Source: Candidatus Omnitrophota bacterium (GTDB lineage: Bacteria; Omnitrophota; Gorgyraeia; Gygaellales; Profunditerraquicolaceae). Taken from it: 64,000 bases of DNA. Shown here piece after piece: positions 3,938 to 64,000 of this stretch. The stretch is taken from NCBI GenBank assembly GCA_963805065.1, contig CAWDSS010000010.1, positions 407,059-471,058 of the forward strand, read 5' to 3'. A model generated the notes under the pieces. It was not told the DNA's origin and did not search any database. It saw nothing but the letters and a program-made list of their open reading frames with translations. Each line of letters starts with the position of its first letter. The stretch's first letter is position 1. The translations under genes and the position numbers were made by a program.

Positions 3938-6471
<2,534 letters not shown>

Positions 6472-37000: not shown

Positions 37001-37563
37001 TTTTCCTTGCAGGTGACGAATTCCATGATATCGGGATGATCTACCCTTAGTATCCCCATATTTGCCCCGCGGCGAGTACCACCCTGCTTAACCGCTTCGG
37101 TTGCCGCATCATAAACTTTCATAAAAGATATCGGCCCGGAGGCAATCCCTCCGGTAGTTTTTACCACCGCATTCTTGGGGCGAAGCCGCGAAAAAGAAAA
37201 TCCCGTGCCGCCGCCTGATTTATGTATGAGGCTGGTAACTTTCAGGGTTTCAAATATAGATTCCATGGAATCGTCAATTGGTAAGGTAAAACATGCGGAA
37301 AGCTGGCCTAAGTCTTTTCCTGCGTTCATAAGGCAAGGAGAATTAGGCATGAATTCTAAAGAAGTCATGATTTCTAAAAAATACTTTTCTAAGTTTGCCA
37401 CTTCTGTTTCGCTCTTTGCGTAAAGTTTATCCGCCAGCGCAATTGCCTGGGCGACCCTGCGAAACATTTCTTCCGGGGTTTCAATTACTTTGCCCTGTTC
37501 GTCTTTTTTAAGGTACCTTCTCTCTAGCACCTTAAGGGCATTTTCCGAGAGTTTCAGTTCCAT
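34039..37563 (-). CDS. nrdJ: class II (adenosylcobalamin-dependent) ribonucleotide reductase NrdJ, interrupted by an intein
   Basis: 1174-aa ORF; exteins total ~764 aa with active site IESTNP|CGEQPLLPYESC and a C-terminal Cys-rich zinc ribbon CPDCGG...CVKCHACGFSKC. Confidence 0.9.
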   Translation of the reverse strand: MELKLSENALKVLERRYLKKDEQGKVIETPEEMFRRVAQAIALADKLYAKSETEVANLEKYFLEIMTSLEFMPNSPCLMNAGKDLGQLSACFTLPIDDSMESIFETLKVTSLIHKSGGGTGFSFSRLRPKNAVVKTTGGIASGPISFMKVYDAATEAVKQGGTRRGANMGILRVDHPDIMEFVTCKENNKHITNFNISVAITDDFMNKLKNGEDYDLIDPHTHKVVQSLNTKTVFDLIVKQAHKNGEPGIIFIDRINQYNPTPRLGKIESTNPCVVGDTLVSTEKGLVKIKDLTRDYSGGGIGIFTDDRILDALFSVEEEGSVATEVKLGVSLNRISRVFKTGVKPVFKAIAKSGFELIATADHKVMTTEGWVRVQDLKPRIHKVLIQSGAGKFNDNTCLPFNIKNEYIGENSKSYKFNFPSRWSKELGQVLGLLVGDGWLRDQDENCRTGFTFSQDDLEILDYIKPIINNFYGQDIKEVLRENNVYHLSYHSKYFVEFFKSLGIKAWDSEQKEVPDLICTAPKEAVIGFLQGLFTADGTIGIEETNNTTYIRLTAKSLKLLKGVQLLLINLGIYSKIYDRSRRERRGFAYTSAGGERRDYILDGVCHELQISRDNIKKFIEEIGFLCNKNEKKLKILSKHNFYSSEFEDTIDKIEYLGEQEVYDLTEPATLTFISNGFISLDCGEQPLLPYESCDLGSINLAVMHKNVGGRIEIDWDKLKQVTRLAVHFLDNLIDVNKFPLPQIEKATKVTRKIGLGVMGWSSLLIILKIPYNSDEAVALAEKVMSFILEESTAKSLELGKEKGVFPAFKGSIYDKKDHPMKMRNATLTTIAPTGTISIIAGPSSSGIEPIFAVSYYRNVMDNDKLVEVEPLFEEIAKERGFYSRELMEKIAENASIQNIEGIPDDVKRIFVTAHDISPEWHVRMQAAFQKYVHNATSKTINFPHDATLEDVRKAYLLAYETGCKGITIYRDKSREEQVLNVGTAKQKQEPIGMEFKKEIAPRPRPEVIIGTTTKVSTGCGNLYVTINVDEEGRPFELFTQMGKAGGCAASQLEAIGRLVSLGFRSGIEVKSIIEQLRNIRCPSPSWEKGQRIFSCADAIARVVERRLVNSQLLKASVEAAASISMKHSHEDEIITTDLEDRGDIVGVCPDCGGALRHEEGCVKCHACGFSKC
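35515..36744 (-). mobile_element. intein (410 aa) with a LAGLIDADG homing-endonuclease domain, inserted immediately before the catalytic Cys of NrdJ
   Basis: Starts CVVGDTLV (Cys codon at 36742-36744); block B TADHKV; dodecapeptide motifs LGLLVGDGWL and FLQGLFTADGTIG; block F VYDLTEPATLTFISNGF; ends ...ISLD followed by extein Cys (Asp codon 35515-17, Cys 35512-14). Confidence 0.85.
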
Positions 37564-45736: not shown

Positions 45737-45924
45737 TAAAAAGTTAAAACTAAAAAGTAAAAACTCAAAACTGTAACTCAAAACTTAAAAGTTTTGAGCT
45801 TTACGTTGCAGTTTTGCGTTTTGCATTTTACGTTTTGCGTTTTTTACCGCCTCCTTTCTACTTTCCTACTTTTTTACTTTTTGCTTTTAAATTTTTTTAC
45901 TTTTTGCTTTTTACTTTTTACTTC
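45737..45924. repeat. long AT-rich heptamer-periodic tract: A-rich half (AAAAGTA-like units), then T-rich half (GTTTTGC/TACTTTT units)
   Basis: aaaaagttaaaactaaaaagtaaaaactcaaaactg...gttttgcgttttgcattttacgttttgcg...tactttttgcttttaaatttttttactttttgctttttactttttact. Confidence 0.6.
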
Positions 45925-48371
45925 CAGAGTTTCTTATACAAGTAATAAGACTTGCGTAATTGCCTTAAAAACGGGCTTAATTTTCCGTCACCCTGGCCGC
46001 AAATTCCCAGCCACTCCTCATGCATATAACCGTCGGGAAACGGCCCGGTAAATAATCCTTTTGTATCATGCGTGTATGGCTCATAAGCCTTCCACCATTC
46101 ATCCAGCCATTCAAACGCCACTGCGCCGATAGAGTTTCCCGCACCGGTGTGAAATGCCATGTTGTTTTCAATATCCTCCCAGGAGCCCTGATGATACACT
46201 GCCTGGGCTTCTTCAGCCTCATCCAGGGAACTGCCTTCTGCGTATGCAGGGCAGCCATACTCTGTAATAAACACCGGCACATCTGCTTCTTCTCTTACGC
46301 TTTTCCAAAGCCTGCCAAAACCATACTCTCCCCGATAGGCGTTAGTGCCGAAAATATCAATATCAGGCGCATCTTTGCCGAATTTATCCAGGAATAATAT
46401 GTCGCCGCTACAAATTGCTACAGGATGTTCGGGGTCAATTTCTTTAATGTGGTTTGCCACTTCATTTGCGAATTTAAAAAATGCGTCGGGTTCCTTATTG
46501 GCATTACAGGCATAGCCGTAAACATTTTCATTACCCAGGAGCCAGAATAATATGTAGGGTTCATCTTTAAATTCCAGAACCATGTTAGTCACTGACTCCA
46601 TCATGTTTTTCTTTTGCTCTTCATTAGTATAATCTGTGCCCGGGCTCCAGGGTGCGCCTGAACCCAAAGCATATTTACCCAGGAAATCGCCCATAATTAC
46701 CATTATCCCGTAATTATCGTAAAGGTCGCGCATAATTTCCTTATGCATTTTATAAGGGTGGTGATAAATCCTTAGGGCATTTACACCCATTTCTTTCATT
46801 AGCCTGAAATCTCCTACTGCGGGTTCGTCTTTATCCTGCAGATTATTTCTGTTTTTATCCACGAAAGCATCATACGGACCGTCTGCCTTGCCGTTCTTAT
46901 TAAAATCATCCTCCATCCAGTTAGTCATTGTCCCGTTATCCGGAGATTCCCCTACTTTTGTGGGAGCATAAGTCAGGCCCTTGATGACAAACGGCTTATT
47001 ATTAACCAGCAATTCCCAGTCGCCGGTTTCATATTGCACTAAATGCACCCTGCCTTTACCGCGCCTCTTTTTTATGCTCAAAAGGTCTTTAGAGGGTTTT
47101 GGCTTGAATTTATCAAGAATACCGATTTTCACAAACCTGCCCGGGTTAGTAATTGTTATATCATTAGAAACGTCATTATCATAACCATTGATTATTCGGA
47201 TATCCGCATCTACTAATTTGTATCCCAACTGCGGATTCTTATGCAGTAAATAATTTATCTTGGCAATTGCTGCTTGGCCAACATACCAGGGCGTATGCCA
47301 ATAAGTCCAGCCGTAACTCCCCGGGTAATGCACTACAATTGCATAATAACATTTAATCGCATGTTTAATTAGGCCGGATTTTTCCAAAAACAAGGCGGTA
47401 TAAAATAATTTTACTCCCTCTGGCTCAGGCGCATTAGCCCATTTTAAAAACCCTGCTTCCAAATCAGGGGAATGTACAAAATCCCAGTGCGAGCCTTCCA
47501 GCCGCTTTTGTTTCATGGCTGTTTTAAATTCAGGATCCCAGCGCACAGAGCTGGAATTGGGATAAATCCCCTCGCCTACCGCCTGAATCAGGCCTTCCTG
47601 ATCGGTAACCACATATTTATAATCCTTAGTCCCTACGTTTTCAAACTTTCCGTATTTCCCATAATCTACAACATCTTCCTTGCCGGGATCATAGAGGACT
47701 ATTTTTGTGGGCAGCTGGCTTACTTTTATTTTTACTGTTTCTTCAGGCATTGTGCCCGGGCAGGGCGCAGGCAATTTTTCATTGGGATTTAATTTAAGTA
47801 TACTTTCTCTGGCAGCCCTGGCAACAGACCAAAACCAGCCTCTAGGGTCCCAGGCTTGCGCAAAACAATATTTTTCCACCACTACTTTAAAGGCCTTAAT
47901 GGACTCTTCTTTCTTTCCCTGATCCCTGTAAGATTCGCCTTGAATAAAATGCGCTGTGGCAACGTCATTTAATTCTCCCACAGCTTCAATATCCGGCCTG
48001 TTCTTAGGCAGGGATTTTAATGACGCCTGTTCTTTCTCTGCTTGAGGAGTATACAAATCTATTAACTGCTGGGTGTATTTGAAGGTTTCTTCTATGTTCT
48101 TTTTTCCATGGGCATTCCAGGATTTAACGATAAGCTCGCCGGATGTAGGTTTGTCTTGAGCGAATAAGTAGCGACATGTACTAAAACAAAAAATAAGCGA
48201 TAAACAAATAATACATAGGTCGATAGTCGATAGTCGATAGTCGATAGTTTTGAAAGAAAAGGGGACGTTTCTATTTTTAAATAAATAACATAACGTAGTA
48301 AAAATAGAAACGTCCCCTTTTCTTTTAGACCATAGACCCTTAGATTTATTTTTTCTATTTATTTTTTTCAT
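45918..48371 (-). CDS. large secreted GH2-like clan GH-A glycoside hydrolase (N-terminal extra domains plus a C-terminal TIM barrel paralogous to 43220..44575)
   Basis: 817-aa ORF; ILFWLLGNENVYGY and VPVFITEYGCPAY; signal-peptide h-region IDLCIICLSLIFCFSTCRYLFA|QDKP. The leader reads through palindromic repeat D and (GTCGATA)x4. Confidence 0.55.
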   Translation of the reverse strand: MKKINRKNKSKGLWSKRKGDVSIFTTLCYLFKNRNVPFSFKTIDYRLSTIDLCIICLSLIFCFSTCRYLFAQDKPTSGELIVKSWNAHGKKNIEETFKYTQQLIDLYTPQAEKEQASLKSLPKNRPDIEAVGELNDVATAHFIQGESYRDQGKKEESIKAFKVVVEKYCFAQAWDPRGWFWSVARAARESILKLNPNEKLPAPCPGTMPEETVKIKVSQLPTKIVLYDPGKEDVVDYGKYGKFENVGTKDYKYVVTDQEGLIQAVGEGIYPNSSSVRWDPEFKTAMKQKRLEGSHWDFVHSPDLEAGFLKWANAPEPEGVKLFYTALFLEKSGLIKHAIKCYYAIVVHYPGSYGWTYWHTPWYVGQAAIAKINYLLHKNPQLGYKLVDADIRIINGYDNDVSNDITITNPGRFVKIGILDKFKPKPSKDLLSIKKRRGKGRVHLVQYETGDWELLVNNKPFVIKGLTYAPTKVGESPDNGTMTNWMEDDFNKNGKADGPYDAFVDKNRNNLQDKDEPAVGDFRLMKEMGVNALRIYHHPYKMHKEIMRDLYDNYGIMVIMGDFLGKYALGSGAPWSPGTDYTNEEQKKNMMESVTNMVLEFKDEPYILFWLLGNENVYGYACNANKEPDAFFKFANEVANHIKEIDPEHPVAICSGDILFLDKFGKDAPDIDIFGTNAYRGEYGFGRLWKSVREEADVPVFITEYGCPAYAEGSSLDEAEEAQAVYHQGSWEDIENNMAFHTGAGNSIGAVAFEWLDEWWKAYEPYTHDTKGLFTGPFPDGYMHEEWLGICGQGDGKLSPFLRQLRKSYYLYKKLWK
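48219..48246. repeat. heptanucleotide tandem array (GTCGATA)x4, perfect
   Basis: gtcgatagtcgatagtcgatagtcgata. Confidence 0.85.
48257..48322. repeat. palindromic repeat, copy D (extended-arm variant AAAAGGGGACGTTTCTATTTTT / AAAAATAGAAACGTCCCCTTTTC)
   Basis: Loop aaataaataacataacgtagt. Confidence 0.85.
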
Positions 48372-48377
48372 TGAACT

Positions 48378-49226
48378 CTATCCTACAATTGCTCCCTGGG
48401 TTACGCCTTTCACAATATATTTCTGCATCAGCACGTAAACTATTATTATAGGTAAGGCAGTTATGGTTAAGCCTGCCATTAACAACGGATAATTCGTGAC
48501 AAATTCTCCCTGGAATGTCTGAAGCGCAACCTGAAGCGGCATATATTGCTTTGAATCAAAAATTATCAAAGCCAGGATATATTCATTCCACACGTTCAGT
48601 GCGTTAAATACAACCACTACTGCTAACACCGGCTTTGCCAAAGGTAAAGCCACATGCCACCATATTCCTAATTTTGAACAACCATCTATCCTGGCTGCGT
48701 CTTCCAGCTCTTTGGGCAATTTATCAAAAAATGTCTTTAATAAAAATATGCTGGTAGACAACCCCACGTTAATCATGCATAAAATATAGCCTATGGGAGT
48801 ATTTCTCAGATGCAGTTTATTCAATAATACGTACAGGGCAACAAAACTTCCCGGTATAGGAATCATCATCGCTACCATAAACATGAGAAATAAAAAATTC
48901 CTGCCGGGAAAACGAAAGCGTGAAAATGCATACGCTGCCATGGAAGAAATAATCACTATGCCCACTACCACTGATACGGTATATAAAATACTGTTCAGGA
49001 AATACCTGTCAAACCCGCCCTGAATCCAGGCCTGGTAATAATTTGAAATATGGAATGTTTTTGGGATTAGCGAGTTGTCTTTAAATATGGTTTCCTGCGT
49101 CTTGAGGCTGGAAGAAACCATCCACAAAAGAGGAAAGATACAGCTGATTGAGACAGTGATGAGGAAAATGTGTACCAGCGCATTTACGGTTACTCTTTTG
49201 ATTTTATAATAAGCAGTCGTCTTCAT
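48378..49226 (-). CDS. carbohydrate ABC transporter permease (MalG/UgpE-like)
   Basis: 282 aa; EAA loop region LEDAARIDGCSKLGIWWHVALPLAKP. Confidence 0.8.
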   Translation of the reverse strand: MKTTAYYKIKRVTVNALVHIFLITVSISCIFPLLWMVSSSLKTQETIFKDNSLIPKTFHISNYYQAWIQGGFDRYFLNSILYTVSVVVGIVIISSMAAYAFSRFRFPGRNFLFLMFMVAMMIPIPGSFVALYVLLNKLHLRNTPIGYILCMINVGLSTSIFLLKTFFDKLPKELEDAARIDGCSKLGIWWHVALPLAKPVLAVVVVFNALNVWNEYILALIIFDSKQYMPLQVALQTFQGEFVTNYPLLMAGLTITALPIIIVYVLMQKYIVKGVTQGAIVG

Positions 49227-49232
49227 ATGTTT

Positions 49233-50159
49233 CTATTGCATTTGCCGCGCTCTTTTGGAGAAGCGGTATTGGATAAACGATATTATTACTAATACCACGC
49301 CGAAAGTTATGCCTTGTGCGCAGGCATAGCCGAAACGCGATGAACCGCGCATGGAAGCCAATATTCTTAATACAGGAACTGAAGTATAGCCTGCCAACTC
49401 TCCGCCTACCAATCCGATAATCAAAACAAACGCCTGCATGGTTCCCAAAACCGTAAGTATTGCCACCAACACCGCAACCGGTATCATCAAGGGAACTGTG
49501 ACCCTGGTAAAAGATTGCCAGGCATTTGCCCCGTCCACTCGTGCTGCCTCATATAGCTCGCGCGGAATTGTTTGTAATCCTGCCAAAAATATCAAGAATC
49601 CCCAGCCAAAGCCTTTCCAGGAATGCACCAATGCCACAGTTGTAAGGGCAGTCTTGGGATCTGAAAGCCAGTGATGCACTAATTGCGGCAGGCCCACACT
49701 AACCAGCATACGGTTAATAATATTAGCACCATCAACATCGTTGATAATAAAACGCCAGGCCATGCCGACTACTATTTCCGATAAAACAGGCGGAATGAAA
49801 AATATCATCCTGTAAAAATTCTTCGCACGTATTTCTCTGTCGCAAGCCCAAGCCAGAAGAAAAGCCAGCGCGTTCTGGAAAGTCAGGGCGATTAGTGTAA
49901 TGTAACCTGCGTTCCGCATGGCTTGCCACCAGCTGGGGTCCTGTAAAATTATTTCTTTGAAATTGTTAAAACCGACAAATATCTTGGTGGGCAATATGCC
50001 GTCCCAGTCATAAAGGCCCAATTGGAACACCCAGATAAAGGGTATGATATAGAAAATTACAAATATTGCTACGGCGGGGAGAACAAATAAATAGTTTTCT
50101 AAAGTGGATTTTATCCGCATATAAAACTTTATTAATTGTAACTTAATGTCAAATGACAA
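49233..50159 (-). CDS. carbohydrate ABC transporter permease (MalF/UgpA-like)
   Basis: 308 aa; LYEAARVDGANAWQSFTRVTVPLM. Confidence 0.8.
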   Translation of the reverse strand: MSFDIKLQLIKFYMRIKSTLENYLFVLPAVAIFVIFYIIPFIWVFQLGLYDWDGILPTKIFVGFNNFKEIILQDPSWWQAMRNAGYITLIALTFQNALAFLLAWACDREIRAKNFYRMIFFIPPVLSEIVVGMAWRFIINDVDGANIINRMLVSVGLPQLVHHWLSDPKTALTTVALVHSWKGFGWGFLIFLAGLQTIPRELYEAARVDGANAWQSFTRVTVPLMIPVAVLVAILTVLGTMQAFVLIIGLVGGELAGYTSVPVLRILASMRGSSRFGYACAQGITFGVVLVIISFIQYRFSKRARQMQ

Positions 50160-50168
50160 AACTCAAAG

Positions 50169-50232
50169 AAAAGGGGACGTTTCTATTTTTAACGTTTCCT
50201 AATCAGAAGAAAAATAGAAACGTCCCCTTTTC
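50169..50232. repeat. palindromic repeat, copy E (extended-arm variant), itself nested inside a 12-bp outer inverted repeat
   Basis: Loop aacgtttcctaatcagaag; outer CAAATGACAAAA (50143-54) / TTTTGTCATTTG (50279-90). Confidence 0.85.
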
Positions 50233-50295
50233 TTTGGTTGTCGAATTACTTAGATTAAGGGATTTATTTTGACGTTGGGATTTTGTCATTTGTTA

Positions 50296-51594
50296 TTATC
50301 TTCTTTTGGCTAATTCTCTTTCTTTTATTGCCTGCGTGAGGCTAGCTACCTCTTCGGGGGTCTTTTCTCCGAGGATAATGGATTGTATGCCTTTGTCCCA
50401 CGCTTCTATGACTGCAGAAAATTCTGAAACGCCCCAAATATTCGGGTGCGTTGAATATTCCATGCCGTTGGCAAATTCCGATAAAATATCGGATATTTTA
50501 GTTGCGCTGTTTTTATTAGCCGGCAGGTTATTGGTTGTTTCAGCCAAAAATGCCTGCTGGTTTGTGTCGGTAAACCACTCTAAGAATTTAACTGCCTCTT
50601 CCTTGTTTTTAGAACGCGCGTTAACCATAAATGAGGAGCCCGCACCTCCCCAAATCGCCATAGGATATTTATCCGATTGCTTGGGGGGAAGAAACGCTGC
50701 GTACTCTAAATTGGGATTCATGCCTTTGTAAACATTAACGCACCATGAGCCATTAAAGGCAAACACTGCTTTTTCATTGGCAAACAGCTGCTCTGCGGTC
50801 TTATTGACCATAATCAACAATTCTCCCGAAGCCAGCCCTGCATCCCTCATATTCTTAAAGATGGTTAAAACCTGAATCCAGTCAGGGTCAGTATAAGGAA
50901 CTTCGCCTCTTATTGTCGCTAAAACTTTATCCTTGCCCATAATATTAAAGGCGTAATTATTGGCAAAGCAGTCAATCATCCACAGCTCTCCCCATCCGGA
51001 AACAAAACCCTGCAGATTAGCTTCCTTGATTTTTTTAGCCATATCCAGGAATTCCTGCAGGGTAACAGGAGGTTTTTTGGGATCAAGGCCAAGAGTTTTA
51101 AATAGATTCTTGTTATAGACCATTTGAATAGTCATCACGTCTATCGGTACACCGTAAATGCCCGGCTTTACGTTGTAACTATTTCCTTCAATAAATTCAT
51201 TTACTGCTAAGGCCTTGGCAAAGAAAGAGTTTTTCCAAGAGCCGCTATTTTCTTCCATAAAAGGGGTTAATTCCAGAATATGCCCGGCTTTGATAAAAGA
51301 GGCGAAATCTCTTTTTTCGCCTAAAATTCCAAAAATATCCGGGAGGTTTGTTCCCTGGGCAGCTGCGCGCACTTTCTGAGTGTAGGCATCAGAAGGGGCA
51401 TATAATTCAAAATTTACCTTTACTCCGGCCTTTGCTTCATACCTCTTTGCCAACTCCTGGAATGCCGGCTCTCTGTCTGTCATCCAGTGCCAGACAGTTA
51501 TAGTTGGTTTTGTTGCTTTCTGGCCGGAAGAACAGCCAATAATAGAAAATATAAGGACAAATAGCGCTAAACCCCCAATGCGTAACTTACCCAT
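50296..51594 (-). CDS. extracellular solute-binding lipoprotein, family 1 (sugar ABC transporter SBP)
   Basis: 432 aa; lipoprotein signal LALFVLIFSIIGC|SSG; SBP_bac_1-like sequence. Confidence 0.8.
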   Translation of the reverse strand: MGKLRIGGLALFVLIFSIIGCSSGQKATKPTITVWHWMTDREPAFQELAKRYEAKAGVKVNFELYAPSDAYTQKVRAAAQGTNLPDIFGILGEKRDFASFIKAGHILELTPFMEENSGSWKNSFFAKALAVNEFIEGNSYNVKPGIYGVPIDVMTIQMVYNKNLFKTLGLDPKKPPVTLQEFLDMAKKIKEANLQGFVSGWGELWMIDCFANNYAFNIMGKDKVLATIRGEVPYTDPDWIQVLTIFKNMRDAGLASGELLIMVNKTAEQLFANEKAVFAFNGSWCVNVYKGMNPNLEYAAFLPPKQSDKYPMAIWGGAGSSFMVNARSKNKEEAVKFLEWFTDTNQQAFLAETTNNLPANKNSATKISDILSEFANGMEYSTHPNIWGVSEFSAVIEAWDKGIQSIILGEKTPEEVASLTQAIKERELAKRR

Positions 51595-51726: not shown

Positions 51727-52431
51727 TTATATCGCTCTTAACACGCGAGATAAACCCATAAGATCGGCCTTTTCCAGGTTAACGCCTACCTTGTACTTAT
51801 TGGTATCCACCATTTTTGACCAGACTACTTCACCTCTGGTGTACAGCGGCTCGCCCTTATCAGGAATTTCAAGCCACATTTCCAAAGCAGTCCTGGGGTG
51901 TAATTGCTCATTTGCCGAGATACCAATACCTTTAGCGCTGACATCTTCAATTGAAGCCTGGCTCTCTTTATTTTCTCTAAGGTTTATAAACTTCACGGGA
52001 AAAGTCGCATTAAACCTGTCAAAAATCCTGCGGTCTTGAAATTTTTCTTCTTCCATTGTCTCACCCCCTTCAGGTATTGTGTCTTTCCACCATTGGTTAT
52101 TTACCAGACGAGGAAAATTGCTGCGCATAAACTTATAGATTGTTTCCTTATCCCCGTCCTTAATCTTATTGAAGCAAACGCCATGGATGTTGACGCTGCC
52201 TATTGTTTTATGCCAGGCTACCCACGCTTCTATATTTATAGCAGAAACGTCAGATAAAACAATAGTTAATTTCACAAACTCATCTTTCGGTAACTTCATC
52301 TGCAAAGCAAGGTTACAACCCAAGAAACTGATATCGCCCACAGTGCAGTCCGCGCAATTTTCAGCTCCCTGAAGCTTCACCTTAAGCTCTTTGTTTATTT
52401 TCCACCTCGCACAACGCCTTCGCCCTGTCAT
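51727..52431 (-). CDS. tandem PilZ-domain protein (two c-di-GMP-binding PilZ modules)
   Basis: 234 aa; module 1 RRRCAR ... DISFLG; module 2 RRIFDR ... DVSAKG (RxxxR plus D-x-S-x-x-G signatures); the ATG overlaps the stop of the giant ORF (ATGA). Confidence 0.65.
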
Positions 52432-55400
52432 CTCACTCCTTTCTGTGGCTGGTAATAGGTTAAGTTTATATTAGGTAAAACAGCGGCATTAGCATGCAAG
52501 CCGCTATTGACAATCGGCAATAAAGTTCCATCTGTGAAATGCGAATTGTCAGCTGTGAATTGAATTGGTGAACTAGAATATTTCTCTTCCCAAACTCGAT
52601 CAACAAACTGAACTAGCCTGTTTATCGCATTCATATGCGAATAAAGGTATTGGTTTAACTTTGAAAATTCAACTTTATGCCGTGGATCAATAAACAACTG
52701 AGCTACTAATTCTGCGGCATCCTGACCAAATTCGTTTCTTGTAGAATCGTATGTGTATATAATATATTCTAAAATTCTGTAGGTATCTTCAGCCATAAGT
52801 TGCTTTGCAAAACCTAAAAGTTGTCGATCCAACGTGCCCTTGAAATGGCCATAAACTTGATAGATCCATATCTTGTCAAGCTGAATCAAATTTGTGAAAG
52901 AAATTGCTCCTGCTGTAGCCTGCGGCAATTCAGCCAAACTCAAAAACTCATTATATAATTCCTCCGGAACGAATCCCAAATTAACAATAGCAATATTAGT
53001 ACCGGAAAGTAAAGCAGGGCTATATTCTCCTTTGATTAAATCAATATAACGAATTCCGTATTTCTTCACTGTTTCTCGTAACGAATTAGATTCCGACCAA
53101 TCGTTAGACCTTCCGAAAGTAAAGAGAGTTACGTCTCTTTCTTTAAGATGAACTGCACTCTCTTTGGCTTGCGCAATAATCTGCAGGAACTGAACAAGAT
53201 GCTTCCAGGTAAATTCTTGGTAATAGGTCGTCCACAATGAACTAGCTATGCTATTTTTATCAAATGGCAGGGTTTTTAGCAATTGTCTCATCTTTAACTT
53301 TTCTAGGAAACACGCTTTGGCTTGTTGATTATCTTGAGATTTATCATTTTGCTCTTTTTTAACAAGCTCGGGGTTAAAGTATAAGCCAACGCCATTGCTA
53401 AAAAGGCCAGCTTCCAAATAAAAAGTCTCTGCATCCCTTGCCCCTCTAAGAGGAGAATGATAATCATCAACAATAATCTTTAAACGCCCTCCTAATCCAA
53501 AAGGAATATCATGATTAAACGAGACGATAAGATCAACCGGTGAAATTTGTTGCCGTTCCTTTTCGCTTGGATATTGAATAAACAAAAGACCGTCATTCTC
53601 AAAATAATCCCCAAAAGTCCTCTCCCGTCCAAAAAGAATCCTTTGAGCCTGACAAAACCCCCAATAGCTTAAATAGATTTGAATCGCTGCCTGCGGATAA
53701 AATTGTTTTATTGTCCGAGCAAGATTAAGGACAACGCCCGCATCTCCGTACCCTTGATCTTCCTCCGTAGACGGTAACGCAACGAGCCTTACAGACCTAA
53801 TTTCATCTTTGGCGACACTCCGAACCATTTTTACTTTTTTACCCTTCGCTCCCTTTTTTATCACCGGCGAGGCGGCGCGTTTTTCGGTTCTAGGTGTTAG
53901 GTTTTTGGTTATTGAGCTAGAACCAACAGACACCGGCGAAGAGACAAAACTTATACTCTGTTTGGCTACCTGGAAAGCTTTTTCCACATCAAGAAAAGCC
54001 GAGCCTTTATCGTCAATTTCAATTTCAAAACTATTTGAAAACACATCGAGAAGTTGCTCTATTTCTCCAGAAGTTAACTTCTCTGTAAGAAGATACGAAA
54101 AAACTTCACTTATATATTCGCCAAAAGCTGAAACAAAAACTCTATGGTTGTCAGTTGAAACAGTATCTTTATAAATAATAAGCTTATACCAGCGCTGGGC
54201 GATATACCTTAAAAGCTCTAAGTTTGAGACGTATTGCTCTAAATCTTCCTGTGCGAATGCCCAGGCAAGAGGAACGCCGTAATATAGAGTTTTACAGGGT
54301 GGCATATTTTCTGAAAGAAACTGCTCGCCGAATTTCAGCGTCGTTACAAAAACGTCGTCTTTTTTAACAAACAATTTTTTCAACATGGGTATCAATACTG
54401 TTTCTGCAAAATCAGTGAGAGTTTTTGATTTATTTAAATGGGCGATGAAGTCCTCTGTCGCCCGGTCAACACTTGAAAACAACCATTCCTTTTTCTCAAG
54501 GCGCTCTTGGACCTTCGGATCATAAAGTTTCCAAAGACGCACATAACTGTTAACGCGTCCATTAACCCTATAGTCTTCATAGAGCTCTAAAACCCGGGCA
54601 ATCGGCTCGCAGAAACCGTTAGGGTTAACGCTATCATTTAGGAGTTGTGTAAAAAACTTATCAATCTGCTTTCTATAAGCTAAGAGGATTCCGCAAAATA
54701 TTTCAAGCGGCTCAAAATTTTCACCAAGTTTCTCTAAGACATAGCTGGCATTATAATAGCCCTCAGGCGCAACCTCTAGGCCATCCAAATCAATGACAGA
54801 CGCATAATAGTAGCCATTTTTATGTAAAGCATAAGCATTATCTTCATGCGGATCGCGTAAAAATAACCCTTTGTTAAAGACGCGCCATAAATGAAGATAC
54901 ATGGCTACTTTCAGGCTGTTTTTCTCGAAAGAATTTAGATCCTCTGTTTCTTTGAGGTATTGCTCTGTCATAATGATGCGTTCTTTTTGAGTCCCGGGCT
55001 CATAGATAGTATAAGTCATTCCATACCAAGGATGATAATCTAAATCATATTTATGAAGCCTGTCGACCACGCAATCCATGAGGAAAGTAAAGTTAGAATT
55101 ATATTCATAGCCATCCAGCGTCTTTGTAACATACTCCCGGACGACCTTAAAAACAATGGGATACTGCCGTCTGCTTTCACCCTCTCCATACTCCAGAGTC
55201 ATTCTAAAGAGGCGCTTATAGTTACCACTGTCGTCAATGAGTTTAACCTCTTTGATTTCTATATCTTGGGGCCTAGCATGAATCTTAAAATTGATTCTAA
55301 ACGTATCAATCTTAAAATCAGGCTCTTCAGCTACCGCATAAAGCAAAGCCACATCCCTGAGATATCCTTTGCCATAACGCTCTAAGTTCTCATGTAGGGC

Positions 55401-58400
55401 TTCAAAAAATGCTTTCTGCTCTCTAGGAGAAAGGCCTTCCTCAAAAAATTCCCCCTGCTCTTTAAAGGTTCGCGTTAACAATCTTTGTTCGATCTCTTCG
55501 ACATTGTCAACATTCATGCTATAGAATTCTTTCGGATGGCCTGGTTTACAAATAGCCTTGGCGAATGCATTCAAATTGGAATCTTTAAAATTAAATTTAA
55601 CCGGCGAGCTAACCGTGTCTTCTGCACCATTTTTGCTGGTTCGGAATGCCGCCGCGAATCTTCCCAAGGAAAATTGATCACCAAAAAGATTACCGCCTGC
55701 TCTGTATCTGCGATAAATATCCAATACTTCGGCTGTCGAATAACAAAATCCGCTTGGATTAATAGCATCAGAAATCATTTTTTCAAAGAACTTCTCATAT
55801 TGATGGCCGTAAGCTAAAAGGATTCCGTAGAATACTTCAAGAGGCTCGAAATTATCCCCAAGTTTTTCAAGAACATGACTTGCATCAAAATCTGATTCGT
55901 AGCCCACTTCCAAACCGTCTAAATCTATCATCAAAGGATAATATTGGCCTTCCTTTTCAATAATCATCACATTCTCATTATGGGGAACACGAACAAATAG
56001 CCATCCTTCAAAAATCCTCCAGAAAATAAGATAGAGCGACACCTTTAAACTGTTCATCTCGAGCGCTCCTAAATCCTGAGTCTCATCCAAATATTGTTCT
56101 GTTAAAATCAAGCGTTCACGACCAACCAAAGGATCATAAAGAACATGGGTTGTCCCATATTTAGCATGAAAAGCGGGATTATATTTTTGAATCTTATCAA
56201 TAATGCAATTTACGACGTTCACAAATTCAAAATTATAGGGGTATCCGTTAAGAGTTCTTAATTTTTCGTCTCTAACAACCTTGAGAACTATAGGGCATAA
56301 TGCACCGCTTATTCTATCTTCCAAAATTAACTTAAAAACCCTTTTGAAAGTGCCGCCATCATTTAAGAAACTCAGTTCTCTCACGGCGATATCTTTGGGG
56401 GCCGCTATAATATCAGAAAACTTTTCTGAGCCATCTTTCTTAAAACCGCCTTTTTGGATCATGGAATAAATCAAGGCTACATCTTTAATTAAACTCTCGC
56501 CGCAACATTGTGCACGCCCTGTTTTTAGAACCTCCATAAAAACTTTTTGCTCTCCAAAGGAAAGCAGGCTTTCCCTAAATTCTTCATTAACCAAAGCTTG
56601 AATATCAGCAAGGAATCTATCCGGCTGAAGATTAATTGTTTCTTTAGCATGAGTAGTTATACAAAAAGATTTTGCAAAATCATTCATTGCCTGATCTTCA
56701 AAATTATATTCTATCCCTTTGTAGTTAGAATTTTTGTTGAAAGATAAACCGATTAGATTGTTTTTGACCGGCGAGCTGGATTCGGCTCCTTCATTTTTAG
56801 GCATCGGTCCCTCGGCTTGCAGCCTCGGGACTCCCTCGCCTCTCATTGGGCTCGTGCTCGGTCGCGAGGCGGCGCCTTCGTTAGTTCTCAGTTTCCGGTT
56901 TCTAGTTTTCAGATTATGATTCTCAACTAACAACGGACAACTGACAACAGACAACTGCAAAGCCGGCGAGGCGGCGTGGGGATTTTTTCCTGCCGGAGAG
57001 CTGCCAGATTTAGTATCTTCAGCCCACGCTTCTTGAACTTTCTTGATTCCCGAGAGGTCTTCTAATTTTTCCTTAAGCCTTGAGAGTTCTATTTCCTTAT
57101 CTACTTCTAACAACAAACCGTCAAGCTTCTGGATTATCCCAAACAAATCAACTTCAGGAAAAACCATTTCTTTTAAAATTGAAAGCAATTTTTTTCTTCG
57201 TAATTGCTTATCCGGTAATTCAGCTCCCGCTGCCGGTGAGCTAGAGAACAGCTGCCTGTTTATCTTAAGGCGTTCTGCAAGCTCTCTGGCCATCTGCCAA
57301 CGCCATTCCTGCCTATTTTGAGTCCCTTTATAGAAGAAACCTGTTATAGTAGTCCCTCTTTCTTTCTCGCTATCCATCGATAACAAAATCTCATAGCGCG
57401 GAATACATAAAATTTTAGCTATACCAACATATTTAGAAACAATCACCACGCTTTCTCTGACATGTTCTATGACAGAAACATCGGAATATTTACCTACGCT
57501 ACGAGTCAATCCCTCTCCTGCCCATCCCCCAATTCCGTTTTCCCTGTGCCATTCAACAGCCCTTTCGATAGGGATAAGCCGTCTTCTCTTATCACGGAAG
57601 CCCAATCCTGCATCATGAATGGATATTAAAACAAAATCATCAACCTCGCAGCGCACGATTAAACCCAGAGATCTCTTTGCGTGCTGGTTAGTGTTTTCCA
57701 CAGAGCACGCAGTAAATTCATTTTCATCGCCCCTTATCTTTCCCTTAGTGATAACCGGGATTGTTTTTGTTAAATTAAAATAATCATCCCGGAGGCTACA
57801 TTTGTAATCCAAGCCATCTATTTTACGGCTACTCATGGCAGCCCCAATAATCCATGTATCCATTCCTTCAAGCGCCTTCAATTCGTTTTTGACCACAATA
57901 AACTCTTTCAAATCTTTTTTGGGATTCAAAGCCATCCTCATAAAATTTCTTGCTTTTGGCACAAAAGAAAACACCCTCTCGTCTATCACCGATGAGCTTG
58001 CTTTAAGCGTAGTCGAAGGGAATAGTTGGACCTTTGGCGAGGCGGCGCATTCAGGCGAAGCAGGGTTTTTATCGAGAGGGGAACAGGATTGACTAGTTGT
58101 TTCTTTTTTCTCAAGTGAATTCACGCCAACAAACGAGTAGTACATATGCTCAGCATCCTCAATAGGCGTTTCAAGGATTCTTTCTTTCAAAGATGCGATA
58201 TACCTTGCGTCATCTTTTCTTTGCAGAATTTCTGCGGCTTCTTGTGCTTTATTTTCTCTGCCTAATTCGATGCTTTTAGCAAAAGTATATAAAATATCTT
58301 TTCCGTTTTTACCAAGCTTTCTTTCGATAAGATCCAGCCTCCCGTTAATAAAAGCCTCCCACAGCACTGGTAATCCTACGTGCTGTGATAATAAATCTAT

Positions 58401-61400
58401 AGCCTCTATAAGCCAGGCATGCCTGTAACGGGTTGAGAATTCCCTGCATTGGTTAAGTAAACTCAAAACCAGATAATCCACTAACGCAAGTTCAAAAAAC
58501 CTGAATTCCGATTCGCAAAAACCATCGAATAAGAGGCAAAGCGCTTCTCTCATTAGATACGGCTCTAAATCTAGCCCCTCAAATGAACTGCCATCGTTAT
58601 TCCAGCGAGAAGCAAGAATACGAGCTTGATAAGGTACTCGTATCACTATGCCATTAGACAAATGGCTCACAAACAAAACAATATGAGACAAGTCAATCGT
58701 GGAATTAAACGCCTGAGAAAGCCTATGAGAAACATTCCTTACGCTTTGTTTTTGAGCTTCATTTGGCTCTGTAATGTGACGTTGTGCCACTCTAAAGTAG
58801 GAAGCAAAAATGACCTTTTCCACATAAAATGCCATAATAAAGGCATTTTCTCTTTCGGCTTTATAATTATTTCTTGTTTTGCTGCGTTTTTCAAACCCCT
58901 TGATAAAATTCAAAATTGAAAACATATCTCTTTTGCGCAGATGACGAAACGCCTCTATGAGACCTGCTTTTGCAGCCTCAGGAGCCTCAACTTTATTTAT
59001 AATTTGTCGTATCCCCGTGCGATATAAATAATCTATATACCTTGCATCAGGAGATAAGTCATTGATATTGTAAGCGTTACCCGCAACAACGATACAACCA
59101 TCTCCGAAAGGAATATCAGCCCAGTCTGCCTCATCATAGCGAACAGTAAAAGAGAAAATGGTTTCCTTATCAAAGGTCATTCTTGCAAAATAGCGCTTAT
59201 CTTTCAGGTCATCGGGAACTAACCTCTTCATTACTACGGAATCCTGCCACTTCTCTTTAAATAAATTACTGTGGAGCCTTACATTAAGGTCTTGCTCACC
59301 AGGAATATTGGCAAAAATGAAGTTTTCTTCACCCACTAAATTAGCCTGTACTGTTCCCGAATAGGGGAAAAATCTTTTTTCCTCCAACAGAGCTAATAAA
59401 TCCAGGTAATCTCCTAGTTTCTGATTTTGAATAGCGGTTATCACTCTCTCAAAGTATGAGAAATCAGGAACCTTCTCAAGGAAAGTATTAAATCTAAATC
59501 CGCAAAGGTGCTCATATAAACCTTTACTTATTAATATGCCCATAATGTTATGTGCAGCACGAAGAGTTTTTACATTACCCTCAGCTATACGCATCAAATC
59601 AGGCAATATATAAACTTCATAATTATCAACGTTAGGGAACCGTTTGTAAAAATCAGCGATTAAATCTGGAACAGCATCTAAGATAGAAAGATTATAAGCA
59701 TATCTAAGCCATTCCCATCTTCGATCATAAAATCTATCGAGGTCGCGCTCAAGAAGGAGTAAACGATAAATTCTTTCTACAGCTTCTTCTTTATAAGGCC
59801 TTAATTGCTCTGGGCAATTATCATTAAATAATTGTTCGGCGGTTTCCCATTGCTTCCACTCTCTCTTCATTGATTTTAAGACAAGGCGGATAGAAGATAT
59901 TTCTTTATCTTTATTGAGTTTATCTACCCATATATGATTTACGCCTAAAGACTCTCTCTGCGGATTAACAGAAGTCAAAAGTTGACTGAAAAACCAGATG
60001 GCTTCAGGATGATATTTATCCTTCATATGAGGAATCGCCCATTCTATCATGATATCAATAAATGGTTTTTTGTTGATGTCGCCCAATATAGAATCGAAAG
60101 TGGGCTTTTCTTCATATGCATCATGATCATTGGTAAGAACGAGAGATTCAAGAGTAATAGTAAGGTTTATATTTCCTGGTTTGTTATGCGAGATTAATTC
60201 TTGGGCATCGAACTTTCTAGCCTCTTTGGTACTGAATTCGGCTGCTCCTCCTTGTGCGATTATTGAATTCACATTAAACCGCTCAGGATACTTCTTGTAT
60301 TGAGCAGTTAAGCCATATCGTTTTAGAATAGAGGTTAACTCAGCGGTACGATTAAGTGGAGGGAGCTTTATGTTATAGTTAATTTTCTCCGGAAAATATT
60401 TTTCTAGTATGCTTACCAAAACAGGCAAACTTCTGCCCCGTTTTTTAAATACTCCTTCGTGGTTAGAATCAAGAGAAATCACTAATATCACGTTAGAAGC
60501 AATCTGAGCCATAAAATGCTCAAGCTCTGTTTCTTCTGTAGGTAGAAAGAACCCACTGGTAACCACGTAAACTTTATCTATATTAGCGGCGATAAAATTA
60601 ACTATTTTAAGAAAATCAGGATACAACGTAGGCTCGCCTCCCAGCAACCGGACACTTGAAAATCCCCGTATGTCTTCGCTAATAAGTTTTTTGAGTTTCT
60701 CACAAGGAAAAATAGCACCCGGATTATGCTTCATAGCTTTTTCTGCACAGCAAAATGGACAGCCCAAACCACACCTGAAAGTCATTATAAGATTAATGTG
60801 ATCTTCAAAATCCAAGAAAGTGCGCAAAAGATCATATGTTATTGCAAATCGATATTCAGAATGTAATATCCTGTCTAGGATATCTTGCATTGTCTCAAAG
60901 CGCTTCCTTTCTTTATCCTCCATCACCGGCGAGGCGGCGCGGGGATTATTTTGCACTGGAGAACCGGATTCTTCAAAAACCTTACATAAGTTTATGATTT
61001 CGGTTGACCCCCAAAAATCAACCTTTTCAATTTCAATATTCGGTGATCCTAACTTTTCATTAACATATTTCTCGGGGTTGGCAAAAACTCCGGGCTTAGA
61101 AGGATCATGGCTTTTTAGAATAACAGCCAAACATCCATCGGGCGTAATACAAAGGCTTGAGTAGAACGGCTCTTGTTCTCTTTCAAAACGACTTCGCTCT
61201 AAAAGACCTAACTTTAATGCCATGGAAAACGCGCGTCCTTCATAAAAGATACCATGGATATTCTGCTTTAAATTGATCTCAAATTCTTCTCCCAAGGGAA
61301 CCCAAACCAACTCTCTTGTCAAGTTATTGAACGACTCTTTCAATGCATTACCACGTACACTAAAAGGCTGCAGTTCTCCTAATTCCCAAATAATCAGGTG

Positions 61401-63956
61401 GTCTTGCATTGAATCATTTTTGTAAGATAAAGGTAAGAATTGAATTATATCACGATATCTACTGTAGTATGACACTAACAGCTTTCTAAAATCTTCTGAA
61501 TCAACCCCACCATGTCTCATGACTGCTTGTATAACATCCGGATAAAACAAATGAAAACTAAAATATGGCCATTGTGAAGAATTTTCCACAGGATTAAGGG
61601 ATTGAAAGACTTTTTCAAGAATATCCCTATTATTCTGATTAATAAGTTTCTTGGCATTAATAACCAAATCTTTTCTCACTGGAAATCTAGGCAATAACTG
61701 AGAGATAATATAAGCTAAATCACGACGATTTAAAGCATCTGAATCAAGTCTAGTTCCTATTTTTAATGCAGGCCATTTATTAGTTATCGAAAATATTAGT
61801 AATCTGAATAATTTAGGTGACATCTGTTTTACGGGTCCCATAGCATCAAACAGACAATGTTCACATGCATCATTACAACCCCATGTGAACAAAATTCCTA
61901 TCTCTTTGTGGTTTTTGAGCCATAATTCAACAATCATTTGAAATTTTTTTGTAAAGCAGGGAAATGAATTGTTTATGAAATTTTCAATCGTAGGCGAGGC
62001 GGCGCGGGGTTTTTCTCCCACTGGCGAGCTGGATCGAGTCTCAAGATCACCATAAAGATCATAAATAAGCCTCTTTTCAGCATCGCCTAATATTTCATAG
62101 GCGGTTGCAGCCTCTTTAAATATTTTTTCGGCTTCTTTGTTGTTAGGGTTACGATCAGGATGAAACTTCAAAGCTATGGCTCGATATGCCTTTTTGATCT
62201 CTTCCCGCGTAGCATCAGGTTTAACCCCAAGAGTCTTGTAAAACTTAAGCGACTTATTATAACCATTGACGCTGTTAAGAGAATTGTAAGACAATGCATT
62301 GATATACCGCGGGAGCTCCGAATAGCTATCGTCTGTAAGAATATATCCTATTTCTCTTAAGTAAATAACAATTGAATAAGCGGTATCATAAATATTCTTT
62401 CCTTGAGGTTGAATAATCCAAGTCTTGAGGATCATAGGGTTATCGTGGCAGACAAAAGCGACCTCTATAAACCTCTCTCCTGGCCTGCCAGGACCTTCAT
62501 TTTTCACGCGTATATCAAGGACGCCTTCTTGGTAAGGTATTTGGACAATATCTGCTTCTGGGCGGCCAATACTGTTTGTATCAGAGGCCCGAACTACACT
62601 CTTTTCCAAGCCGCCCGAGCTGCTCAAGCCTCCTTTCAATACATTCTCCATCCTATCGCATGATTTTGTTGGTTCAGCTTCCTGATGCATTTGATCAAGC
62701 AGCGCCAAATCATAAGACTCCACAGCTTCAGAGTTGAATACCAGTAATCTCTTCCCGTCTACAGAGAAGAAAGGCTTATCTTTTTCCCCCAGCTTAAGTG
62801 CAATTTTTTTGCCATTGATAGTAGTACAAATCAAATTAATGACTTTTGTCAAACCGTCATATATATGCAGATAGCTCCCACACGCAGAATAATAAGTATT
62901 GAGCAATGCGCCACGCGTATTCAAAGGAACGATTTTTGCGTTATCCACATGATAGATGGCACAGCTAGGATCAACATCCCAGTTTATTTTGTTAATGTCA
63001 TAACAAAGAAGTGTACTGTCAAGTGTTGGTGATATAGAAAATTGATAGAGATTGGGGGCGATAAAAGTCCTTTCTTTTGTTTTGAAATTATACACTTCTG
63101 CTGAACCACACAAACTGATAAATAGCGAATCTGGAATAGCTATAAAATTAGCAAAACTCGTGCCTTGGGGGATAAGAAATATTTTCCTAGTTTCAAACTC
63201 ATAAATTACTTTCTCTTTATTGTCCAAGCGCAAGATGGCAAATTTTTCATCTTTGGGAAAAACATGAATAAACGGCAATCTCCCCGGCTGCACTTGGGAT
63301 AAATCAACTTCAAGGCCTGTCTTTAGATCAAACAGGCTGCTATTATAATCTTCTTTAAACATTACAATGGCGTATCCATCTTGCCCTGAAATATGGACAT
63401 GAGACACTTGACCTTCGAAATTTATATTTAAAACTTCTCTTTTTTCGATATCGATTATTTGCACGGTGTCATTAGGGAAATAAACAGGTATCAAACTACC
63501 GCTTCTTGAAAATGTACCAAACATACTGGCTCCCTTATGCAATCCCTTAATTTCTAAAACCCTTCCCGATTCTATATTGATTATTTCCGGTGAAAACAGT
63601 TTGCCGCGGTAGTCGATCGCCAGATACATATCCTTTGGCGAAAAATTAGCGCTCAAAACATCTGTTTTTAACGATAGCTCAACGATCTTTCCAGATGCAA
63701 CTTCATACAGCTTCTCATCAACAAAAGCAAACTTTCCTTTCCTAGATATGAAATTACTATGTGCATAGTGATAGTGATCCATATTATATGCATTGAATCC
63801 CGGAAGGCGCATTCCTTGTGTCTCAAGAGGAGAACTACTAAGCCTCGGCGAGGCGGCGCGGTTAAAATCGGTCGATAGTCCATAGTCTATAGGCGATAGT
63901 GAAAGTCCCGTGTCCTGACCATTGACCATAGACCATTGACCATAGACTGATTTCAC
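52428..63956 (-). CDS. giant multidomain protein (3842 aa or more; the ORF remains open upstream of the GTG start and continues past the window edge)
   Basis: Uninterrupted 11.5-kb ORF; domains are listed as separate features below. Confidence 0.8.
54657..55364 (-). other. giant protein: atypical protein-kinase-like module 2 (internal duplicate of module 1)
   Basis: PIVFKVVRE ... MTEQYL ... LRDPHEDN ... VIDLDGLEV (IDLD at 54783..54794); DPHxxN resembles the catalytic loops of ABC1/UbiB- and APH-type kinases. Confidence 0.5.
55782..56504 (-). other. giant protein: atypical protein-kinase-like module 1
   Basis: PIVLKVVRD ... LTEQYL ... VRVPHNEN ... MIDLDGLEV (IDLD at about 55917..55928). Confidence 0.45.
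56925..56959. repeat. heptanucleotide tandem array (CAACTAA CAACGGA CAACTGA CAACAGA CAACTGC) inside the giant ORF
   Basis: Encodes ...[13 protein letters not shown]... within a low-complexity linker. Confidence 0.7.
57387..57689 (-). other. giant protein: GHKL/histidine-kinase-like ATPase region
   Basis: [12 protein letters not shown] (DxGxG, about 57597..57626) ... [10 protein letters not shown] (G2-like); extent approximate. Confidence 0.4.
60087..60809 (-). other. giant protein: radical-SAM domain 2
   Basis: [18 protein letters not shown] (CxxxCxxC at 60750..60773) and [15 protein letters not shown] (GGEP at 60630..60641). Confidence 0.65.
61257..61904 (-). other. giant protein: radical-SAM-like domain 1
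   Basis: [15 protein letters not shown] (CxxxCxxC at about 61854..61877); extent approximate. Confidence 0.5.
62052..62246 (-). other. giant protein: DnaJ J-domain
   Basis: [62 protein letters not shown], with the HPD tripeptide. Confidence 0.8.
62397..63779 (-). other. giant protein: beta-propeller-like repeat region (WD40/PD40-like)
   Basis: Repeating ~40-aa units with (I/V)xxxD and YD/FD strand motifs; extent approximate. Confidence 0.35.
63883..63950. repeat. heptanucleotide tandem arrays (GTCGATA/GTCCATA/GTCTATA ... GACCATT GACCATA x2) inside the 5' end of the giant ORF
   Basis: gtcgatagtccatagtctataggcgatag...gaccattgaccatagaccattgaccatagactgat encodes [31 protein letters not shown]. 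Confidence 0.75.
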
Positions 63957-64000
63957 CGGAGAGGCGGCGCCTTCGTTAGCTTTCGGCCCAAGACGTACAG

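Follow-up and report, generated by a model that had tools for sequence, protein, structure and literature searches.

A codon-conserved linker at the module borders of a giant Omnitrophota gene is a candidate site of processing and module exchange

Omnitrophota are tiny, probably predatory bacteria. Their giant genes include those of the 'Archaeovorin' type, whose proteins exceed 30 thousand amino acids (kaa); downstream of most of these genes lie pilZ and genes for solute-binding proteins, transporters and glycosyl hydrolases, and a conserved parvulin-type peptidyl-prolyl isomerase (PPIase) is encoded upstream (West-Roberts et al. 2023, bioRxiv 10.1101/2023.11.21.568195). A catalogue of 916 giant proteins describes class-1 'multi-enzyme metabolic clusters' containing radical SAM, HATPase_c, GNAT, HD and response-regulator domains (Nielsen & Lui 2026, bioRxiv 10.64898/2026.06.07.730766). 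Such open reading frames (ORFs) are poorly conserved and sparsely annotated (Seymour et al., PMC10066038), and in the giant-protein literature C39 or S8 peptidase domains are suspected of processing the giants. Here we analyze a 64,000-nt stretch of a Candidatus Omnitrophota bacterium (the window; contig CAWDSS010000010.1), whose right-hand end is filled by one minus-strand ORF. The gene to which this ORF belongs is a further member of the known Omnitrophota giant-gene class. We consider it probable that the ORF comprises the last 3,856 codons of a single Archaeovorin-like giant gene, with modules that are joined by short linkers of the form [AS][AS]SP[VLIM], exchangeable and handled individually.

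The window gene resembles the published giants in several respects. It spans tens of kb and encodes a single chain tiled with many unrelated enzyme and signalling domains, and downstream of it lie genes for PilZ, a solute-binding protein (SBP), ABC permeases and a glycoside hydrolase. The sequence is poorly conserved from one genome to another, and radical SAM, HATPase_c, HEAT, TPR, methyltransferase, response-regulator and HD domains are common to the published giants and to the window gene or its relatives. It differs in having a DnaJ domain and the linker motif, neither of which is mentioned in the giant-gene papers, and in that several of its modules, including a kinase-fold family, have no Pfam model. 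The original prediction described an unprecedented architecture outside any known family and also pointed to the giant multidomain ORFs of Omnitrophota. The latter suggestion is borne out by the locus and the multi-enzyme content, which match the published class; the former is contradicted by this class membership and by module sets that differ among relatives.

Two other kinds of system are comparable. Viral polyproteins, such as those of picornaviruses and potyviruses, are likewise encoded in one ORF as unrelated units parted by a short conserved motif that is independent of its neighbours, and the likeness extends to lineage-specific motif variants (SSSPV-type and RSE[VIM]R in the giants). 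The giant gene differs in that its cleavage is a prediction and no protease was identified in the window; moreover, its linker is conserved at synonymous sites, a feature not needed for recognition by a protease. Exchangeable units bounded by short conserved sequences are also known from integrons (attC cassettes), shufflons, and the module swapping of nonribosomal peptide synthetases (NRPS) and polyketide synthases (PKS), and in NRPS/PKS and cassette systems, as here, relatives carry different sets of units at one locus. Unlike these systems, the giant gene holds its modules in frame within one ORF, has no integrase and no attC-like structure, and follows no assembly-line logic; its repeats are all direct.

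Each module border in the window carries the linker motif, often as SSSPV-x4-P-R-AASP-V. The nucleotide pattern GCCGCCTCGCC occurs eight times when one mismatch is allowed; all copies lie within the giant ORF, in one frame and at module borders, and the other 52 kb of the window contain no copy (0.69 expected by chance). Codon choice is conserved as well. The giant ORF contains eight AAS tripeptides, all of them encoded by GCC-GCC-TC(G/T); five more occur in other genes and are encoded differently. Of the Ala codons 24% are GCC, of the Ser codons 12-15% are TCG, and CCG stands at 30%. We compared the giant-gene ends of six species (16,160 aa in total) with their neighbouring genes (30,595 aa). 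The tripeptide ASP is found 39 times in the giant-gene ends and once in the neighbouring genes, which corresponds to a linker enrichment of ~70-fold, and 31 of the 39 are encoded by GCC-TCG (~3% expected). The nucleotide consensus across the six species is C-GCC-TCG-CCG-(C/G)TG, in which five third positions are fixed at 64-80%; one more third position, just upstream of the consensus, is fixed at 64%. The bias extends to two distant giants from NCBI assemblies, where TCG encodes the final Ser of xSSP in 13 of 21 and 7 of 15 cases against a background of 11-12%. In many other long proteins bearing homologues of the window's modules, xSSP is the commonest 4-mer (22-30 copies; 1.1-1.4 expected). 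Ser codons vary freely in the SSSP half of the linker, so selection at the protein level acts too.

The linker is a low-confidence, disordered stretch in the AlphaFold2 model. In long linkers, low-complexity palindromic inserts lie between direct copies of the core GCCGCCTC, and such in-frame inserts are found on the minus strand of the window at 63850-63998, 56880-56960 and 53850-53945. RNA hairpins were predicted in the two inserts tested (z-scores of -2.5 and -2.65), short linkers fold no better than shuffled sequences (z -0.7 to -0.85), and a search of Rfam found no RNA family in the giant gene. The 22-nt linker pattern AWAAWCCYCRCGCCGCYTCGCC gave only single chance matches in unrelated taxa among 185,579 GTDB representative genomes and JGI metagenome contigs. 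A protein query consisting of the linker only had no match, even though one relative's locus (L003) holds exact linker copies; the database searched evidently lacks truncated giant-gene products, and the result excludes only homologues of ordinary length. Both giant-gene papers leave the motif unmentioned, no publication pairing SSSPV with Omnitrophota was found, and the linker thus appears undescribed in the literature searchable here. We note that two proteins of 3.5-3.8 kaa with the same kinase-fold module (P0044 and P0047) contain no SSP linkers and carry RSE[VIM]R five times each, a motif that, judged by its pattern, looks like a lineage-specific alternative linker.

The linkers divide the end of the giant gene into the following features (aa, residues of the translated fragment).

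63822..63998, minus strand: long linker, aa 1-59, NEGAASPV plus palindromic low-complexity insert; RNA hairpin z -2.5
62274..63821, minus strand: module 1, aa 60-575, beta-rich, possible propeller; sub-threshold beta-propeller Pfam matches, E 0.007-0.011
62058..62243, minus strand: J-domain with HPD, aa 586-647; Pfam DnaJ E 1.1e-23, PDB J-domains E 2e-18
61986..62042, minus strand: linker, by motif
60963..61985, minus strand: module 3, aa 672-1012, with CxxxCxxC (GCNDACEHC), by motif
60918..60971, minus strand: linker, by motif
58074..60917, minus strand: module 4, aa 1028-1975, radical-SAM core plus ~600 aa of helical sequence; PF04055 E 3.7e-12
60453-60788, minus strand: radical-SAM core of module 4, aa 1071-1182; PF04055
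58026..58073, minus strand: linker, by motif
57246..58025, minus strand: module 5, aa 1992-2251, GHKL (histidine-kinase-like) ATPase; alignment, profile and fold
57006..57245, minus strand: SSSPA linker plus ~80-aa predicted helical segment, aa 2252-2331; predicted local distance difference test score (pLDDT) <50 over SSSPA
56766..57005, minus strand: long linker, aa 2332-2411, low-complexity insert, ending in ESSSPV; 104 nt 89% identical to a sister-species linker
55611..56765, minus strand: module 6, aa 2412-2796, kinase fold with VPHNEN, probably a pseudokinase; alignment and fold
55599..55610, minus strand: short linker VSSPV, by motif
53943..55598, minus strand: module 7, aa 2801-3352, kinase fold plus ~200-aa extension; Lys, DPHEDN and IDLDG intact
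53862..53942, minus strand: linker VSSPV, palindromic insert, EKRAASPV; hairpin z -2.65
52578..53861, minus strand: module 8, aa 3380-3807, orphan; homology searches empty
52431..52577, minus strand: C-terminal tail, SSSPI ... YYQPQKGVR; last codons contain the pilZ Shine-Dalgarno sequence and start

The mix of domains at this end is not a conserved architecture, because five syntenic relatives carry almost entirely different modules there. The last 2,000-3,300 aa of these relatives have only a J-domain, a GHKL fragment and a linker in common with the window. In the sister species (locus L002), the neighbouring genes are 77-82% identical to the window in DNA, and the corresponding giant protein has at least 26,400 aa. 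Over its last 2,005 aa, this protein shares with the window only a 63-aa linker and the final residues, and its modules there are TPR and HD-GYP-type (HD_5). YQPQKGV[RK], followed by the stop, is the sole C-terminal sequence common to the two species because its codons encode the Shine-Dalgarno sequence and ATG of pilZ. A 104-nt linker is 89% identical between the two species, above the identity of the conserved flanking genes, and the adjacent modules are unrelated. At the other loci, the modules are receiver, J-domain and HEAT repeats (L024), a GHKL fragment, metallophosphatase, TPR and HEAT (L029), and methyltransferases and LuxR-type helix-turn-helix (L031). The J-domain of L024 (aa 986-1038 of the giant fragment) is 52% identical to that of the window and stands in a different module context, with a SASPM linker directly ahead of it and HEAT repeats behind. 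J-domains thus recur in these giants.

Most of the domains named in the original prediction were found again. Pfam searches with the whole fragment matched only DnaJ and Radical_SAM, and PDB and NCBIfam agree with these calls. The J-domain scores 83.6 bits against the DnaJ model (PF00226; gathering threshold 27.8) and contains its HPD motif in KFHPDRN. Module 4, the second radical-SAM core of the original prediction, contains CxxxCxxC and GGEP and scores 47.2 bits against PF04055 (threshold 29.5). A PADLOC viperin match to module 4 was not accepted as placing it in that family, since the NCBIfam viperin model gives 35 bits against a cutoff of 180, over the N-terminal half only; MoaA was rejected likewise (33 bits against 284, N-terminal half only). 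Module 3, the other predicted radical-SAM core, contains CxxxCxxC without GGEP, has no Pfam or NCBIfam match at E up to 10, and is not a paralogue of module 4, since there is no similarity between them. The predicted WD40/PD40 propeller, module 1, has partial matches only (15-16 bits against cutoffs of 84-305). For the remaining slices, searches of Pfam and NCBIfam with E values allowed up to 10 gave only sub-threshold propeller hints, and modules 1, 3, 4 and 8 had no match in a set of giant-protein sequences totalling ~95,000 aa. A query with the C-terminal 1,436 aa found no homologue at E 1e-5 or better, and did not find itself, in a database that evidently lacks truncated giant-gene products; this result therefore excludes only homologues of ordinary length.

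An exhaustive HMMER search of 1.84 billion representatives with aa 1992-3190 found 37 remote homologues (24-37% identity), most of them embedded in other proteins of 1.3-6.9 kaa. The modules in this region belong to two families, a divergent GHKL family and a kinase-fold family without a Pfam model. The GHKL ATPase proposed for module 5 has the conserved N, G1 and G2 boxes and a Bergerat fold in its AlphaFold model. In an alignment of 18 sequences, N52, H56, D79, G81, G105 and G111 are invariant; they correspond to the N-box Asn and His, the G1 box DxGxG and the G2 glycines. Its profile matches only histidine-kinase ATP-binding domains in the PDB (DevS, VraS; E 0.009-0.06), and the Foldseek top matches of the model (pLDDT 82.5) are all GHKL proteins with probability 1.0, including TopoVI-B, MORC, GyrB and histidine kinases. 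The copy in the window has no Pfam match even at E up to 10. One GHKL homologue, P0023, has a receiver domain directly after the module.

Modules 6 and 7, described earlier as kinase-like, belong by fold to the protein-kinase-like superfamily, which is marked by a bilobal fold, the beta3 Lys, D-x4-N and a metal-binding Asp. They have no match in Pfam, NCBIfam or PDB sequences, and their profile also finds nothing in the PDB; their identity is given by fold comparison alone, with ~10% identity to known structures. The closest of these are small-molecule kinases of the superfamily (NahK, APH, choline and homoserine kinases), from which the window modules differ in having no sequence-level match and in that one of the two copies lacks the catalytic Asp. 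Module 7 keeps Lys, DPHEDN and IDLDG, and module 6 is without the catalytic Asp (VPHNEN). The loss of this otherwise nearly invariant residue from the upstream copy suggests a tandem pseudokinase/kinase pair, in which module 6 is probably a pseudokinase and module 7 probably an active small-molecule-type kinase. No hydrophobic 19-mer exceeds 1.6 on the Kyte-Doolittle scale in the 3,856 aa. Together with the J-domain and the Fe-S enzymes, the lack of transmembrane-like segments suggests that this end of the protein is cytoplasmic.

The reading frame is intact and much longer than the window. The ORF lies at 52428..63956 on the minus strand and encodes 3,842 aa from a GTG, as originally predicted, with all the quoted motifs present in its translation; the frame is indeed open upstream of the GTG, and 52428-63998 translates into 3,856 sense codons and one terminal stop, still open at the window edge. 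The neighbouring frame is crowded with stops. At ~40% GC (about 41% for the 1,191,048-bp NCBI/ENA contig from which the proteins of the window are on record), a stop is expected about every 16 codons, and a stop-free run of 3,856 codons has a probability of ~1e-109. A contig of the Logan assembly (run ERR10755942) is 100% identical to the window across 11,508 nt, and on it the giant gene encodes at least 18,085 aa and runs past the contig end. The earlier figure of at least 3,842 aa thus holds as a lower bound and is far too low as a size. The gene totals at least 54 kb, so that the window contains at most about one fifth of it. The window gene and those of three relatives exceed the 10 kaa used by Nielsen & Lui as a size criterion, and the longest relative, limited by its contig, has at least 26,400 aa, compared with the mark of more than 30 kaa of West-Roberts et al. 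The second assembly also speaks to the concern, raised with the original prediction, of a chimeric gene, for which its identical sequence gives no support. Relatives were recovered repeatedly from independent samples or assemblers, with 99.99% identity across 20.7 kb for L029 and L030 and 100% identity for L026 and L027 and for L002 and L003.

In L026, the giant frame (6,581 aa) shifts within a linker at ~5780-5900, with GSGSPV in one frame and GSSSPV in the next. It is followed by ORFs of 540, 108, 504 (HEAT) and 91 aa (up to 9711) and then by pilZ. Sequencing error, decay and a programmed shift are all possible causes of this break; because it falls inside a linker, frameshifts at linkers either occur or are mis-sequenced.

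The giant gene is followed by a conserved set of genes.

52428..64000, minus strand: giant gene 3′ end, 3,856 codons plus stop, open at the edge; translation and identical Logan contig
51727..52431, minus strand: PilZ gene with two PilZ domains, ATG overlapping the giant-gene TGA; Pfam
45918..51594, minus strand: conserved downstream block; annotation, and synteny in L002, L024, L026, L028, L029 and L031
50296-51594, minus strand: solute-binding protein (sugar-binding), in the block
49233-50159, minus strand: ABC permease 1, in the block
48378-49226, minus strand: ABC permease 2, in the block
45918-48371, minus strand: GH2-like hydrolase, in the block

Further genes, including a ROK regulator, lie beyond the hydrolase. 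The PilZ protein matches PF07238 in two stretches (74.4 bits; threshold 22.5) and has 408 homologues at E 1e-20 or better. The giant-gene stop and the pilZ start overlap as ATGA, and the last codons of the giant gene, AAAGGAGTGAGATGA (52428-52445, minus strand), hold the pilZ Shine-Dalgarno sequence AAAGGAG and the ATG. These findings fit the predicted coupling to an adjacent cyclic di-GMP receptor gene. The same order of giant gene, pilZ, SBP, permeases and GH2-like hydrolase is repeated in six other metagenomic loci, with PilZ proteins 51-79% identical. The giant genes of relatives encode 26,400, 25,381, 16,452 and 6,581 aa, where the three largest values are lower bounds because the contigs end within the genes. 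The arrangement of pilZ, SBP, permeases and glycoside hydrolase matches that published for Omnitrophota giant genes.

Several other features of these loci were observed. In the window (1-64000), every gene-like ORF of at least 150 aa is encoded by the minus strand. The GC skew stays negative over the whole stretch, and the 64,000 nt contain no tRNA gene. The large subunit of ribonucleotide reductase (34039-37563, minus strand, 1,174 aa) is split by an intein holding a LAGLIDADG homing endonuclease (Pfam Intein_splicing, LAGLIDADG_3). In L029 and L030, a 124-aa gene of the 23S_rRNA_IVP / bAvd family is located between the SBP and permease genes (12116-12490). bAvd is an accessory protein of diversity-generating retroelements.

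We propose that the giant chain would be made as one translation unit coupled to pilZ, and that its J-domain may recruit DnaK in cis and thereby help to fold the enormous nascent chain. The linkers would be recognition elements that allow each module to be dealt with separately. For the protein, this would most likely mean proteolytic release, which would make the product a bacterial polyprotein; by its sequence, the linker resembles a polyprotein cleavage site, because a strictly conserved 5-mer is independent of its neighbours and has lineage-specific variants. At the DNA level, the linkers, including the GCCTCGCC core, may serve as in-frame joints for the gain, loss and exchange of modules. 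Synonymous-site conservation and the sharing of a linker between unrelated modules argue for this additional role as a recombination joint. The giant gene would then be a stop-codon-free operon of interchangeable cassettes rather than one integrated enzyme. As an idea only, the Ser-Pro linkers could be substrates of the parvulin-type PPIase.

Several points weigh against this reading. Cleavage is a prediction from the sequence pattern, and a protease site alone fails to explain the conservation of synonymous sites. Direct evidence of recombination amounts to one 104-nt linker common to two species, and the window's modules might lie elsewhere in the genes of the relatives, reordered rather than replaced. 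Transmembrane helices, SecA_DEAD and C39/S8 peptidase, the hallmarks of the class, are absent from the C-terminal 3,856 aa and would be expected in the N-terminal four fifths or more, outside the window.

The linkers may instead be purely structural or kinetic, acting as flexible spacers and arrest-peptide-like ribosome pause sites that allow each module time for folding, in an intact, tethered multi-enzyme chain that is not cleaved. The invariant Pro and the R-A-A-S-P of this clade (compare RAGP of SecM) fit such pausing, conserved synonymous sites are expected if mRNA or codons matter, the linker is disordered in the model, and the J-domain points to a need for co-translational folding help. 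However, ordinary flexible linkers do not keep the same 5-mer from species to species, and the Arg is not kept outside the closest clade. Of the three codons only TCG is rare, GCC and CCG being common enough here to make ribosome pausing a weaker alternative. Overall, we regard this explanation as unlikely.

A further alternative is that the motif acts primarily in DNA, as the core site of a dedicated in-frame cassette exchange (site-specific or by microhomology), with the peptide as a tolerated by-product. Such a role would account for third positions conserved across six species, for a motif restricted to the giant gene, for a linker 89% identical between species with unrelated flanking modules, and for palindromic inserts with a direct repeat of the core on either side. 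On the other hand, copies that are all direct repeats would favour deletion, the window contains no recombinase, free variation of Ser codons in the SSSP half implies protein-level selection too, and distant giants keep the peptide with a looser codon bias. We find this explanation doubtful. Similarly tentative, and rather improbable, is a more specific proposal in which a core of ~12-15 nt (C-GCC-TCG-CCG-STG, encoding [AS]ASP[VLM]) would be both an in-frame recombination joint for swapping whole enzyme modules between genes or genomes and a site where the product is split into individual proteins, through a dedicated protease or a ribosome-level event like 2A skipping or an arrest peptide.

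The domains could also form a self-contained, integrated machine of ~4,000 or more aa (J-domain, two radical-SAM domains, GHKL and two kinases) that founds a new family, given that all these folds stand in one uninterrupted frame and most of the domain calls hold. This is very unlikely and already largely refuted: the frame continues to at least 18,085 aa, the modules at this end differ among syntenic relatives, many other giants of unrelated content have their modules parted by generic linkers of this kind, and GHKL and kinase homologues occur singly across many different long proteins. Lastly, we give almost no credence to an artefact, in which separate genes were fused by misassembly or sequencing error or the frame is open without coding, since no stop interrupts 3,856 codons at 40% GC, the same sequence is present in a second assembly with three more relatives recovered at 99.99-100% identity, and real domains are in frame over the full length, although the frame of L026 does break in a linker with smaller ORFs downstream.

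The domain mix that seemed unprecedented is thus an ordinary consequence of a known gene class, and what this analysis adds is the linker. The linker also gives a practical guide to dividing giant proteins into foldable units, which here yielded confident AlphaFold models and brought the kinase-fold and GHKL families to light. It bears on how the giant Omnitrophota proteins are produced, whether they are cut and how their genes evolve, and it provides a concrete candidate site for both processing and module exchange. If the core does have the dual role outlined above, it would represent a previously undescribed bacterial way to organise, express and shuffle genes.

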